Numbered from the stretch's first letter, positions 40,936 through 55,949 are shown. The stretch is DNA of 64,000 bases from Escherichia coli (GCF_024502345.1 NZ_JALDNN010000001.1); one strand, 5' to 3'. The notes: generated by a model not told the origin, from the sequence alone. A program made the numbers and translations.

Positions 40936-41217
40936 ATGAAAGCGCACCTACAGGTGATTTTCACGCTCGATGAATTGGCTGCGTACTTGAAAGTCGGCAA
41001 GCGGACGCTTTATCGGCTCGCCGCACACGGGGAAATTCCGGCTTTCAAGGTGGGCGGGACGTGGCGGCTTCGTCAAAGTGAAATCGATCAGTGCATCAAT
41101 GATCAGACCCGAGCCGGAGCAAAGAAGGAGGTGATGCGCAAGCGTGAACAGCAGAAGTCATCCGAGCAGCCCGTGTCGCCTGGGCGCACTGCCCGTCGCA
41201 GCAGGCAAAGGGCTTGA
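40936..41217 (+). CDS. MerR/excisionase-type HTH DNA-binding protein (LHR orf1)
   Basis: The ATG at 40936 follows ggagagggtgag. The protein reads MKAHLQVIFTLDELAAYLKVGKRTLYRLAAHGEIPAFKVGGTWRLRQSEIDQ. Confidence 0.8.
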   Translation: MKAHLQVIFTLDELAAYLKVGKRTLYRLAAHGEIPAFKVGGTWRLRQSEIDQCINDQTRAGAKKEVMRKREQQKSSEQPVSPGRTARRSRQRA

Positions 41218-41251
41218 GTAACTCGTTTTCCAATTTTTCTGGAGGTATGAC

Positions 41252-41821
41252 ATGGACATCGATTTCAAGAAGTTGGCTCCCTGGAACTGGTTCAAGAACG
41301 AGCAGCAAGAGCAGCAGACCGCCTCTTCCCTGCCGGTGCAGCGCAATGACCTGCCAGCGGCGAGCGGGCCAGTCAGCCCGATCCTGCAACTGCGTCGGGA
41401 AATCGACCGGCTGTTCGATGACGCATTCCGGGGCTTCGGTTTTCCGGCGTTGAACATGCCGCAGTGGCCATCCGATTGGTCGGGCATGCTGAAGCCGGCC
41501 CTGGACATCCAGGAAACCGACAAGCAGTACAAGATTGCCCTGGAAGTGCCCGGTGTCGAGGAGAAGGACATCCAGATCACCCTCGACAACGACGTGCTGA
41601 TGGTGCGTGGCGAGAAGCGCCAGGAACAGGAGAAGAAGGAAGGTGGCTTCCACCGTGTGGAGCGCTCCTACGGCAGCTTTCAGCGTGCCTTGAACCTGCC
41701 TGACGACGCCAACCAGGATTCGATCAAGGCATCGTTCAAGAACGGGGTGCTCACGGTCACGATCGACAAGCGCGAGGTCAGCGCGCCGAAGCAGGGACGC
41801 TCGATCCCGATCAACGGCTGA
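41252..41821 (+). CDS. small heat-shock protein, Hsp20/alpha-crystallin family (LHR sHSP20)
   Basis: 189 aa. The alpha-crystallin core reads LDIQETDKQYKIALEVPGVEEKDIQITLDNDVLMVRGEKRQE...FHRVERSYGSFQRALNLPDDA. The RBS is ggagg. Confidence 0.9.
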   Translation: MDIDFKKLAPWNWFKNEQQEQQTASSLPVQRNDLPAASGPVSPILQLRREIDRLFDDAFRGFGFPALNMPQWPSDWSGMLKPALDIQETDKQYKIALEVPGVEEKDIQITLDNDVLMVRGEKRQEQEKKEGGFHRVERSYGSFQRALNLPDDANQDSIKASFKNGVLTVTIDKREVSAPKQGRSIPING

Positions 41822-41926
41822 CGTCGCCGGCTCGTTCGTCACAAGAAAAACCCGTCCCGAGACGAGGTGTCGCGGCTCGCGATGCCTCGTCGCCTCAACC
41901 TTTTCAACCTTCTAAGGAGCATCAGC

Positions 41927-53336: not shown

Positions 53337-53830
53337 AATCAACACGCCTTAACCCATTTCAGGTCTTACGTGACCAATTGGCCATCATGAGTTTTTACGA
53401 GCGCTTCGAGCAGGTCGTCGCGCTCGTGCTGTCGGCGGTGATCGCCGTCATCATCGTGGTGTCGCTGTTCCAGCTCATCTCCATCGTCTTCACGCTGCTG
53501 GTTCTAGATGCCTTCAATCCCCTGGACCACGAGGTATTCCAGAGCGTGTTCGGCATGATCATGACGCTCTTGATCGCGATGGAGTTCAAGCATTCCATCG
53601 TGCGCGTGGCGCTGCGTCGGGACAGCATCATCCAGGTCAAGACGGTGGTCCTGATCGCGCTGATCGCACTCTCCCGCAAGTTCGTGATCCTCGACTCCAA
53701 CGCGAGCCCCGCAAAGATAGCCGCGCTGGCTAGCGCCACGCTGGCTCTGGGTGCGACCTACTGGCTGCTGCGCAAGCGCGGCGACCGCGCCGCCGAGACC
53801 TCTGAGCATGACCCGTCATCATCCCAGTGA
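53333..53830 (+). CDS. psiE: PsiE-like phosphate-starvation-inducible membrane protein
   Basis: 165 aa with four hydrophobic segments. Its ATG overlaps the kefB stop (ATGA). Confidence 0.7.
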   Translation: MKSTRLNPFQVLRDQLAIMSFYERFEQVVALVLSAVIAVIIVVSLFQLISIVFTLLVLDAFNPLDHEVFQSVFGMIMTLLIAMEFKHSIVRVALRRDSIIQVKTVVLIALIALSRKFVILDSNASPAKIAALASATLALGATYWLLRKRGDRAAETSEHDPSSSQ

Positions 53831-54773
53831 TCCGCGCACGGCGCTCTTGCAACACCGCTGGCTCAACCGCCTGCAGACCGGGCTGTTGGTCCTGACCCTG
53901 GTCGGGATCGCAGCCGCAGCAGGGAGACTGCCGTTTGGGGAAGGCTGCCTGTGGCTCGCGCTGTTTGCCATTGCAGGTGCGTTGCTGCTGGAACCGGTAG
54001 CCGCGTCGGCGCTGAGCTTGCGCCTGTACCGCGTACGGGCCTTGCACCCGCAAGAAGCCCACAAGATGTGGGCCCTATTGCGCGAGCTGCCCGCCCGTGC
54101 CGGTTTGCCCGCCACGCCGGTGCCGCACTATGTGCCCAGTGCCGTCGTCAACGCCTTCGCCACCGGATCGAAGCAGGAGGCATCGATCGCCCTCACCGAT
54201 GGCCTGCTGCGCAGCCTGAGCCCACGCGAGCTGGCGGGTGTGCTCGTGCACGAGGTCGCGCACATCGCTAATGAGGATCTGCGTGTCATGGGGCTGGCGG
54301 ATTCCGACAGTCGCCTCACGAGCCTACTGGCCCTTATGGGACAGATCGCGATCCAGCTCAGCCTGCCCGCGCAGCTGGTTGGCGCGGCGGAGGTCTATTG
54401 GCCTGGTCTATTGTTATTGGCCGCATCGCCCCAGCTGGCCCTGCTCGCACAGCTCGGCTTGTCTCGCGTGCGTGAGTTCGACGCTGACCGCCTTGCGGCG
54501 GAACTGACTGGCGACCCGCAGGGGCTGGCGTCCGTGCTGGCAAAAATCGAGCGGGTCAGCCGCTCCTGGCGTGCCTGGCTATGGCCGGGATGGGGCAATC
54601 CCGAGCACTCCTGCTTGCGTACGCGTCCGGCAACGCAAGAGCGCATTGCACGCCTGCTGACGTTGGCGCCTGGGCCAGCATCAGCGTTGCCACTCCGCGC
54701 GCCCCATTTTTTGCCGGAATCCGCTTTGGCGACGCGCCCACCGAGCTGGCGCCCGAGCGGGCTGTGGCGCTGA
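53808..54773 (+). CDS. M48-family (HtpX-like) zinc metalloprotease
   Basis: The ATG at 53808 overlaps the end of psiE. It has N-terminal TM helices and the HExxH motif LVHEVAHIANED. Confidence 0.8.
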   Translation: MTRHHPSDPRTALLQHRWLNRLQTGLLVLTLVGIAAAAGRLPFGEGCLWLALFAIAGALLLEPVAASALSLRLYRVRALHPQEAHKMWALLRELPARAGLPATPVPHYVPSAVVNAFATGSKQEASIALTDGLLRSLSPRELAGVLVHEVAHIANEDLRVMGLADSDSRLTSLLALMGQIAIQLSLPAQLVGAAEVYWPGLLLLAASPQLALLAQLGLSRVREFDADRLAAELTGDPQGLASVLAKIERVSRSWRAWLWPGWGNPEHSCLRTRPATQERIARLLTLAPGPASALPLRAPHFLPESALATRPPSWRPSGLWR

Positions 54774-54797
54774 TTGCCCATCAACAGGAGACGTCTC

Positions 54798-55949
54798 ATG
54801 GCCTATCTCGACCCGTACCAACGCCCCGCGCCGGACCGCTTCGTCCGGCGCGGGCTCTTCATCACCGCCTGCATTGCCGCGCTCATGCTGCTGTGGCAGT
54901 TTCTGCCCGCCATCGAGGCATGGTTCAGTCCGCGCGAGGCAGCAGAACGCACCGTGATGGCGCGTGGCGATCTGGCGGCGGACGAGAAAACCACCATCGA
55001 ACTGTTCGAAAAATCGCGCGCCTCGGTGGTCTACATCACCACCGCGCAATTAGTACGCGATGTCTGGACGCGCAACGTGTTCTCCGTGCCGCGCGGCACT
55101 GGCTCGGGCTTCATCTGGGACGACGCCGGCCACGTCGTCACCAACTTCCACGTCATCCAGGGCGCGTCCGAAGCCACCGTCAAACTGGCCGACGGCCGCG
55201 ACTACCAGGCCGCGCTGGTGGGGATGAGCCCCGCGCACGACATCGCCGTGCTCAAGATCGGCGTCGGTTTCAAGCGCCCGCCGGCCGTGCCGGTCGGCAC
55301 CAGTGCCGACCTCAAGGTGGGTCAGAAGGTGTTCGCTATCGGCAACCCCTTCGGCCTGGACTGGACGCTCACCACAGGTATCGTCTCCGCGCTCGACCGC
55401 TCGTTGCCGGGAGAAGCGGGCGGCCCGGCCATCGATCACCTGATCCAGACCGACGCCGCCATCAACCCCGGCAATTCCGGTGGCCCGCTGCTCGATTCGG
55501 CTGGGCGGCTGATCGGAATCAATACCGCCATCTACAGTCCGTCTGGCGCCTCGGCCGGCATAGGCTTTGCGGTGCCGGTCGATACCGTCATGCGCGTGGT
55601 GCCGCAACTCATAAAGACCGGCAAGTACATCCGTCCGGCACTGGGCATCGAGGTGGATGAGCAGATCAACGCGCGTCTGCAGGCGCTGACCGGCAGTAAG
55701 GGCGTATTCGTATTGCGCGTGACGCCGGGCTCGGCGGCGCACAGGGCCGGGCTCGTCGGCGTCGAGGTCACCGCAGGCGGCATCGTGCCCGGCGATCGCG
55801 TTATCAGCATCGACGGTATCGCCGTCGACGACGTCACCACATTACAGGCCCGGCTAGACGACAAGAACGTTGGAGATGTTGTGGTCTTGTTAGTGGAGCG
55901 GGCCGGCAAGACTCGCGAGATGCTTGTGGAACTACAACCGGGAGTTTGA
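54798..55949 (+). CDS. degP: DegP/HtrA-family serine protease with an N-terminal membrane anchor and a single PDZ domain
   Basis: The ATG at 54798 follows aggag. The catalytic residues lie in TNFHVI, DIAVLKI and GNSGGPLLDS. One PDZ-like C-terminal region is present (383 aa). Confidence 0.85.
   Translation: MAYLDPYQRPAPDRFVRRGLFITACIAALMLLWQFLPAIEAWFSPREAAERTVMARGDLAADEKTTIELFEKSRASVVYITTAQLVRDVWTRNVFSVPRGTGSGFIWDDAGHVVTNFHVIQGASEATVKLADGRDYQAALVGMSPAHDIAVLKIGVGFKRPPAVPVGTSADLKVGQKVFAIGNPFGLDWTLTTGIVSALDRSLPGEAGGPAIDHLIQTDAAINPGNSGGPLLDSAGRLIGINTAIYSPSGASAGIGFAVPVDTVMRVVPQLIKTGKYIRPALGIEVDEQINARLQALTGSKGVFVLRVTPGSAAHRAGLVGVEVTAGGIVPGDRVISIDGIAVDDVTTLQARLDDKNVGDVVVLLVERAGKTREMLVELQPGV

Follow-up and report, generated by a model that had tools for sequence, protein, structure and literature searches.

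Positions 40936 to 55949 of a 64,000-nucleotide stretch of Escherichia coli DNA (GCF_024502345.1, NZ_JALDNN010000001.1; the whole stretch is called the window here) are occupied by a run of stress-protection genes that belong to the heat-resistance locus LHR, also called tLST, for transmissible locus of stress tolerance. Frame-by-frame comparison with the RefSeq-annotated E. coli Z226-5 gives 15 intact genes in this interval, all on the plus strand. The initial annotation had counted sixteen co-oriented genes while naming fifteen; the sixteenth co-oriented open reading frame (ORF), at 40443-40706, lies upstream of the interval. The gene families that it named agree with our family scans in every case.

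The run opens with the core triplet of adjacent, co-oriented genes orf1, sHSP20 and clpK (40936-44809). The product of orf1 (also called 'dna'; 40936-41217) is a 93-residue DNA-binding protein of the HTH_17/excisionase type (PF12728, E=7e-15; TIGR01764, 52 bits) and is identical to WP_000643630.1. That of sHSP20 (41252-41821) is a small heat-shock holdase of 189 residues with HSP20-family matches, identical to the protein annotated in RefSeq as 'hsp20'. The third gene, clpK (ClpG-GI; 41927-44809), encodes an AAA+ disaggregase of 960 residues that scores 2132 bits with the ClpK model NF033606 (curated cut-off 1900), the match spanning residues 1-960 and model positions 1-949, and 1301 bits with the ClpG model. 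As expected for a ClpK/ClpG disaggregase, the full-length match includes the Cys-rich N-terminal N1 domain and two nucleotide-binding domains (NBD1 and NBD2), each with intact Walker A and Walker B motifs.

A remnant of the cardiolipin synthase gene cls/orfA (44809-45000) and the protease gene ftsH-GI (45061-46788) separate the triplet from the genes downstream. These begin with hsp20-GI (46876-47334), which encodes a second small heat-shock protein of 152 residues with an HSP20-family match, followed by yfdX1 (pscA, 47357-48271) and yfdX2 (pscB, 48374-49261) for two periplasmic YfdX-family chaperones (PF10938, E=6e-34 and E=6e-39, respectively; PMC8407380) and by hdeD-GI (49351-49962) for a DUF308 membrane protein (PF03729, E=2e-23; PMC8407380). 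After orf11 (50042-51187, 381 residues) comes trx-GI (51177-51617), a Trx2/TrxC-type thioredoxin gene whose product has two N-terminal zinc-finger CXXC motifs and a CGPC active site (NF008229, 155.9 bits, cut-off 125). The remaining genes are kefB-GI (51621-53336), for a K+/H+ antiporter of the CPA2 type that has a TrkA_N domain; psiE-GI (orf14, 53333-53830), for a membrane protein (PF06146, E=2.5e-31); orf15 (53808-54773), for a zinc metalloprotease of the M48 type that resembles HtpX and has the motif HEVAH; and degP-GI (54798-55949), for a serine protease of the S1C (HtrA) family with the motif GNSGG and a single PDZ domain. With this gene order, both the envelope and the oxidative modules of tLST are present.

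Comparison by BLAST with LHR/tLST references showed that positions 38334-56781 align collinearly, with one gap, to the chromosome of E. coli S43 (CP010237) at 99.72% identity over 18.4 kb. CP010237 is the tLST1 reference in recent surveys (PMC11814101, PMC12603250), and the names tLST1 and LHR1 follow the nomenclature of Zhang & Yang 2022 as applied in these two surveys. The alignment exceeds the thresholds that have been used to call tLST1, namely an identity of 90% or more and a coverage of 80% or more relative to the CP010237 island (PMC12603250). When 39.9-56.8 kb was compared by megablast with 5426 complete E. coli genomes, at least 118 of them matched at 99.8% identity and 100% coverage, and the block is annotated there as clpK, hsp20-GI, yfdX1/2, hdeD-GI, trx-GI, kefB-GI and psiE-GI. 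Copies on plasmids of Raoultella, Klebsiella and Enterobacter are ~98.5% identical to the island. Since the match to the references is collinear and nearly identical, the identification as LHR/tLST in the initial annotation stands, and we consider it almost certain that 40936-55949 represents tLST1/LHR1, a ~16.6-kb GC-rich island that has dead insertion sequence (IS) remnants at its ends and is lodged in the CP4-6/thrW cryptic prophage. The island is already known: it is the characterised, horizontally acquired locus of heat resistance in its commonest E. coli form and at its usual chromosomal site.

Base composition and flanks agree with this identification. The G+C content (GC) of the block, at 0.622, compares with 0.549 for the remainder of the window and is close to the 61.8% published for LHR (PMC4563881), and the block is bordered by an IS256 remnant (IS256') and transposase remnants on the left and by an IS5 remnant (IS5') on the right. 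That the block is more GC-rich than its surroundings, as had been noted earlier, is borne out overall, though composition is mosaic: GC is 0.642 from the helix-turn-helix gene orf1 to ftsH, 0.561 from hsp20-GI to orf11, which does not differ from the flanks, and 0.655 from trx to degP. This mosaic would be consistent with a composite origin of three functional modules. The GC shift within the island coincides with an 11-nt overlap between orf11 and trx (51177/51187). As a result of the high GC at third codon positions (up to 0.85), an antisense ORF of 937 residues (970 stop-free codons) lies opposite clpK; it is the sole ORF of that size on a non-coding strand in the window, so that the earlier remark that antisense ORFs of 900 or more residues occur only in the block is correct. 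The three gene overlaps quoted with that remark are exact, the other two being 4 nt between kefB and psiE (53333/53336) and 23 nt between psiE and the M48 protease gene (53808/53830), and trx and kefB are separated by a 3-nt gap. To judge from these overlaps, the tightly packed genes from orf11 to the M48 protease gene are possibly translationally coupled.

Three genes of the island are present in particular allelic states. Near its 3' end, clpK carries a perfect 33-bp tandem duplication (44676-44746; Tandem Repeats Finder period 33, 2.2 copies, 100% match) that adds 11 residues to the C-terminal tail. The duplication is polymorphic: S43, whose clpK has 2883 nt, and some other strains have it, but AH04 and Z226-5 do not. 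What is left of cls, as DNA matches and frame translations indicate, is a 63-residue ORF, the small membrane fragment of the initial annotation, that corresponds to an N-terminal piece and, in another frame at ~44953-45010, a C-terminal piece; the DNA of 44953-45100 matches the 3' end of cls and the start of ftsH of a tLST2-like plasmid. BLASTP of the 63-residue ORF against the Cls C-terminus gave no match, the kinship being visible only in DNA and in the other frame. Remnants of cls have been reported (PMC5383660). The ftsH-GI gene, 1728 nt long and coding for 575 residues, has an in-frame deletion with its junction at ~45779/45780. In comparison with a 602-residue Klebsiella allele and with 609- and 626-residue alleles of the tLST2 type, allele alignments and a motif scan showed that the deletion, of 81 bp when measured against the closest allele, removes the Walker B motif (AIIFIDELD), while Walker A (GPPGTGKT, residue 197), the TNRP of the second region of homology (residue 273) and the HEMGH zinc site (residue 390) are kept. 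Alignments to solved FtsH structures split in two at the deletion. A functional FtsH has four motifs, Walker A and B, the second region of homology and HEXXH; here Walker B is gone, and the product is an FtsH homologue that, as predicted from its motifs, probably lacks ATPase activity.

These states help to assign the island to a variant. S43 has the same gene content and order, the same ftsH deletion allele, the same cls remnant and the same 960-residue ClpK with the 33-bp duplication, and its flanks are also the same (mmuMP, Citrobacter-like mhp genes, IS256', and IS5' followed by CP4-6 on the right). The two differ by point substitutions and by a group II intron and IS110 in S43 where the window has IS30, and the window alone has a 4.4-kb deletion to the right of IS5' and an IS1-bounded deletion from fbpC' to prpR'. 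The LHR of strain AW1.7 (tLST1_AW1.7, the form in Klebsiella and Enterobacter, carried mostly on IncF plasmids; PMC4563881, PMC12603250) shares the 13 functional genes, their order, ~98.5% identity, GC and IS-remnant ends, but has lost ~0.9 kb of ftsH, which leaves the fragments orf4-6, whereas here ftsH is a single ORF with a 34-residue gap. tLST2/LHR2 (pFAM21805, Salmonella Senftenberg) and tLSTa/tLST3a (TLPQC, Pseudomonas aeruginosa clone C) share dna-sHsp20-clpG/K, hsp20-GI and trx-kefB-psiE-M48-degP (PMC5383660, PMC8290217). They differ in having intact cls and ftsH genes, the latter with ~89-90% DNA identity to that of the island, in carrying orfC/orfD in orf11 and, in tLST2, in a GGDEF gene, orfE. 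The P. aeruginosa ClpG-GI (PMC8024975, PMC6995612, PMC10641755) likewise has the N1, N2, NBD1, M and NBD2 domains and the C-terminal extension of the protein studied here, which differs by its membership of the exception-level ClpK family and by its additional C-terminal repeat.

Could the island be one of these other variants, that is, the plasmid-type tLST1_AW1.7, tLST2 or tLST3a? The core gene order is common to all variants and even the Klebsiella plasmid copies are 98.5% identical, but the ftsH deletion of the AW1.7 type measures ~880-960 bp, so that such plasmids align to just 49% of the gene found here. The tLST2 markers, namely intact cls, orfC/orfD and the GGDEF gene orfE (PMC5383660), are absent as well: the 4-nt overlap of kefB with psiE leaves no room for orfE, and orf11 is continuous over its 381 codons without orfC/orfD. 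With CP010237 as the best match, the chance that the island is one of those other variants appears very small to us. A second question is whether tLST1 is here a decayed, non-functional remnant whose sequence persists while the phenotype is lost. Decay would be favoured by the absence of Walker B from ftsH, the fragmentation of cls and the heavy rearrangement of the neighbourhood by IS elements. Against this, all genes for which a role has been demonstrated are intact, with 99-100% identity to the alleles of tLST1-type strains, the region upstream of orf1 and the hairpin downstream are unchanged relative to S43, and the same states of ftsH and cls are normal for tLST1, with ftsH-disrupted variants being heat resistant (PMC8290217, PMC8407380, PMC5383660). 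We regard decay as very improbable, if a little less so than a different variant.

The reading as a resistance-conferring tLST1 nevertheless has points against it. With ftsH and cls in the above states the island falls short of the full ancestral gene set; its activity in this strain is argued by analogy with near-identical islands (PMC4563881, PMC8407380); and a scan for sigma-70 promoters over 39.8-56.9 kb returned 4 matches where 3.2 were expected, none of them upstream of orf1 or yfdX. The promoters of the island are accordingly those of the literature, as the consensus scan found none above chance. On the first of these points, tLST1 with a disrupted ftsH confers resistance comparable to that of tLST2 (PMC8290217), which suggests that this shortfall does not matter. 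The description of the locus as complete, made in the initial annotation, holds for the seven genes that are supported by knock-outs but not for ftsH and cls.

What tLST1 may do in this strain is drawn from the literature on near-identical islands. Cloned LHR confers high heat resistance (PMC4563881), and islands nearly identical to this one are known to give survival at 60 °C as well as tolerance to chlorine (PMC4563881, PMC8407380). Single knock-outs showed that resistance to heat and chlorine depends on sHsp20, clpK, sHspGI, pscA (yfdX1), pscB (yfdX2) and hdeD, that kefB has a chlorine-only phenotype and that orf11, trx, orf14, orf15 and degP have none (PMC8407380); under alkaline chlorine, KefB-GI is protective (PMC8067161). 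The disaggregase ClpG/ClpK works autonomously and recognises aggregates via its N1 domain (PMC8024975, PMC10641755, PMC6995612). The statement that most of the genes have no demonstrated mechanism is thus only half true, as 7 of the 13 genes have knock-out phenotypes (PMC8407380) and the biochemistry of ClpG/ClpK is solved (PMC8024975, PMC10641755). All seven resistance genes (sHsp20, clpK, sHspGI, pscA, pscB, hdeD and kefB) are of full length here. By analogy, sHSP20 and sHSP-GI would hold unfolding proteins, and ClpK/ClpG would bind aggregates directly through N1 and thread them out without DnaK. YfdX1, YfdX2 and HdeD would protect the envelope, and KefB would acidify the cytoplasm and shield membrane lipids from chlorine; Trx, PsiE, the M48 protease and DegP may be accessory, with no single-gene phenotype so far. 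On the same grounds the strain is probably of the extreme heat- and chlorine-tolerant type, which is known from meat plants, raw-milk cheese and wastewater and is relevant to food safety and disinfection.

Transcription probably yields one or a few long messages that start upstream of orf1 and end at a hairpin after degP. Mercer et al. predicted the main promoter ~63 bp before orf1 and reported a terminator ~177 bp after orf16 (PMC4563881). By direct reading of the plus strand we found a terminator-like hairpin with a T-tract at 56138-56169, 189 nt past degP and close to their terminator; the hairpin consists of GCCGTCGC, a 9-nt loop and GCGACGGC, followed by CATTTTC. It was missed by our terminator scan because the scan allows loops of at most 8 nt; over 39.8-56.9 kb the scan gave 22 matches, mostly intragenic, where 14 were expected, and was uninformative. 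Rfam searches at gathering thresholds found no thermometer, riboswitch or small RNA family inside or beside the island.

The island itself teaches nothing new. Three side leads, namely the loss of a motif from FtsH-GI, the architecture of Orf11 and the Citrobacter-like mhp genes, may serve tLST specialists, since they bear on the decay of ftsH, the role of Orf11 and the origin of the E. coli variant. Deletions of ftsH in tLST1 variants have been noted (PMC12603250), and the fragments have been treated as dysfunctional (PMC8407380). In the copies that we compared (among them L005 8937-10649 and L090), ftsH of Raoultella tLST1 has a distinct in-frame deletion in the same place as ours but with other breakpoints. 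With the ~0.9-kb loss in AW1.7-type plasmids, three differing deletions occur among tLST1 copies, and ftsH-GI has therefore been disabled in at least three separate and independent ways. That there are at least three deletion alleles may be a new observation. Selection in Enterobacteriaceae against a second FtsH that is active may lie behind the repeated, differently placed deletions of Walker B.

Orf11 is listed as 'hypothetical' and is less than 30% identical to anything known. Searched alone, it matched no Pfam or NCBIfam model. When 46 homologues were aligned, Ribosomal_S30AE (PF02482) was found in 21 of them, PhyR_sigma-like (PF22233) in 22 and Sigma70_r4_2 (PF08281) in 29, and the family profile matched, among solved structures, region 4 of AlgU/RpoE (E=4e-5) and HPF/RaiA chains (E=2e-4). 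Homologue profiles and the predicted structure together give a layout in which an HPF/RaiA-like N-domain (~1-105) is followed by a sigma2-like helical region, an acidic linker that is conserved and a C-domain (~266-343) that resembles region 4 of extracytoplasmic function (ECF) sigma factors. In the AlphaFold (AF2) model, with an overall predicted local distance difference test score (pLDDT) of 77.6, the N-domain has a beta-alpha-beta-beta-beta-alpha fold at pLDDT ~85-90, for which Foldseek gave target-normalised TM-scores of 0.76-0.84 to HPF/protein Y structures. Both fold and profile place the N-domain in the HPF/RaiA (Ribosomal_S30AE) family. The remainder of the model is helical, with a weak Foldseek resemblance to SigW (E=0.065). 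As for the sigma part, region 4 is backed by the profile and by the 29 homologues, and region 2, a tentative assignment, by PF22233 in 22 homologues and the weak SigW match.

From profiles and model, Orf11 may combine an HPF/RaiA-like domain with a module of the ECF-sigma-like or PhyR-like kind, and this fusion may be a new observation. A tentative idea, which we think rather unlikely, is that Orf11 is a stress regulator of a new type, with a ribosome-hibernation domain joined to such a module. In Tibeticola and in a metagenome-assembled genome of Gaiellaceae, the homologue adjoins an eRF1-like (baeRF) gene and stands among YfdX, DUF308, Cls, Na/H-exchanger and Clp genes. A constant pairing of Orf11 homologues with baeRF genes was rejected, as the homologue in Thiobacter is unpaired. 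The neighbours in these distant thermophile genomes suggest an ancestral translation-arrest/ribosome-rescue arm that would have been partly lost in tLST1.

The core that is common to Klebsiella and Raoultella plasmids extends beyond the genes. On the left, plasmid matches begin at 40113, so that the arm 40113-40935 belongs to the core; according to the annotation of identical DNA, it overlaps transposase remnants on the minus strand (40056-40428) and contains the conserved ORF of 87 residues on the plus strand (40443-40706), which has no Pfam or NCBIfam match. On the right, the core ends in the IS5-family transposase remnant, annotated in identical DNA on the minus strand at 56174-56781, and plasmid homology stops at 56743. 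Left of the core lies an IS block (36516-39838), made up of an IS30 with terminal inverted repeats (36516-37736), an IS911/ISEc52-like remnant (37737-38642) and the IS256 remnant on the minus strand (38651-39838). In a search for repeats, only the ends of IS30 and the clpK duplication were returned, and neither terminal inverted repeats nor target duplications bracket the core of the island. As an intact transposase is lacking too, the island is not self-mobile here, which fits the very low transfer of LHR1, resembling that of Hfr (high frequency of recombination) donors, that was observed earlier (PMC5383660).

Further out, the island is flanked by CP4-6 genes. The left flank (25864-29125, minus strand) holds fbpC/afuC', mmuM and mmuP at 99.94% identity to K-12, and the right flank (56779-60068, plus strand) holds yafY', ykfB, ykfF, yafX, ykfG, ykfH, yafW, ykfI and the thrW attachment end at 60068, at 99.8% identity to K-12. 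ARAGORN found no tRNA gene in the window, and thrW itself is therefore outside it. The CP4-type context that had been proposed is supported by these flanks, 99.8-99.9% identical to K-12 CP4-6 genes. The left flank begins at an IS1 (25092-25865) that joins a 129-bp stub of prpR (from 24963) to the truncated fbpC/afuC, so that the whole afuC-prpR interval of K-12, including the rest of CP4-6, is missing here. On the K-12 map, this interval presumably measures roughly 68 kb. The lac operon is ~28 kb from the island because of this IS1-bounded deletion; S43, AH04 and Z226-5 have other upstream neighbours and lack the deletion. A rearranged CP4-type island next to lac, as the initial annotation put it, is thus a fair description, but the proximity to lac is peculiar to this strain. 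To the right of IS5', ~4.4 kb with a ykfA-like GTPase gene, a DUF932 gene, yfjR and ypjK is deleted, and for this reason the IS5 remnant abuts yafY' at 56779; the segment is present in Z226-5, AH04 and S43 (cf. L003 18344-22731).

Between the left flank and the IS block lies a second mhp cluster (29125-36513, minus strand; mhp2) that consists of mhpT, E, F, D, C, B and a 5'-truncated mhpA. In a species scan with one genome per species, it was 100% identical in amino acids and 98.1% identical in nucleotides over 7.4 kb to Citrobacter portucalensis A60, and 89-92% identical to other Citrobacter species. Its identity to the native copy (window 1-5000) and E. coli mhp genes generally is ~82.6-83%. 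Among the 5426 E. coli genomes the distribution is bimodal, with 105 records at 99% identity or above, 4819 at 80-90% and none between. mhp2 adjoins the island in all tLST1 contexts that we inspected (S43, AH04, Z226-5 and the window), and 90 genomes cover at least 80% of 25001-41000. Homology to K-12 stops at 29120-29126, precisely at the end of IS5A in K-12 (L087 15150/15151), which suggests that the junction between CP4-6 and the Citrobacter-like DNA was made by an IS5-adjacent rearrangement. An earlier candidate explanation, that IS911 and IS30 beside mhpA' are K-12's own inverted CP4-6 copy, was dropped, since AH04 and S43 have no IS30 there; for the same reason IS30 is taken as a later insertion.

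mhp2 is probably of foreign origin and, to judge from its adjacency, probably came along with the island. The presence of this 7.4-kb cluster beside tLST1 is an observation that may be new; in open-access full texts we found nothing relevant that mentions LHR or tLST along with mhp or mhpA, and an earlier description may exist. How could the present arrangement have arisen? We lean slightly towards an origin of the whole ~27.6-kb block (29125-56781) in a C. portucalensis-like chromosome, in which LHR and IS elements would have landed in mhpA, followed by spread among E. coli through homologous recombination in CP4-6. The likeness of mhp2 to C. portucalensis as opposed to E. coli (82.8%), its bimodal distribution and its place beside the island in every context inspected argue for such a donor, as do the near-exclusive occurrence of tLST1 in E. 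coli (PMC12603250) and the experimental transfer of LHR1 within a large chromosomal segment (PMC5383660). On the other hand, no Citrobacter genome with an LHR in mhpA was found, although no search aimed at one was made; IS remnants part mhp2 from the island, and two separate arrivals at an IS-rich hotspot could have produced the same order.

The rest of the window is of less concern to the island. Positions 1-25091 are ordinary E. coli DNA with mhpF'DCBA, mhpR, lacIZYA, cyn, cod and prpEDCB, followed by the 129 bp of prpR. Three tandem Rfam matches to naRNA4 (CssrE, derived from repetitive extragenic palindromes) at 18731-18995 on the minus strand, in the interval between codB and prpE, were the only ones that the Rfam search returned and are an ordinary E. 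coli feature. At the other end, 60069-64000 is occupied, instead of thrW/proA, by a second CP4-like island in the opposite orientation, ~81-87% identical to CP4-6 genes, that contains a toxin-antitoxin pair of the cbtA/yeeU type, DUF987, radC, fragments of Ag43 and WYL and DUF932 genes.

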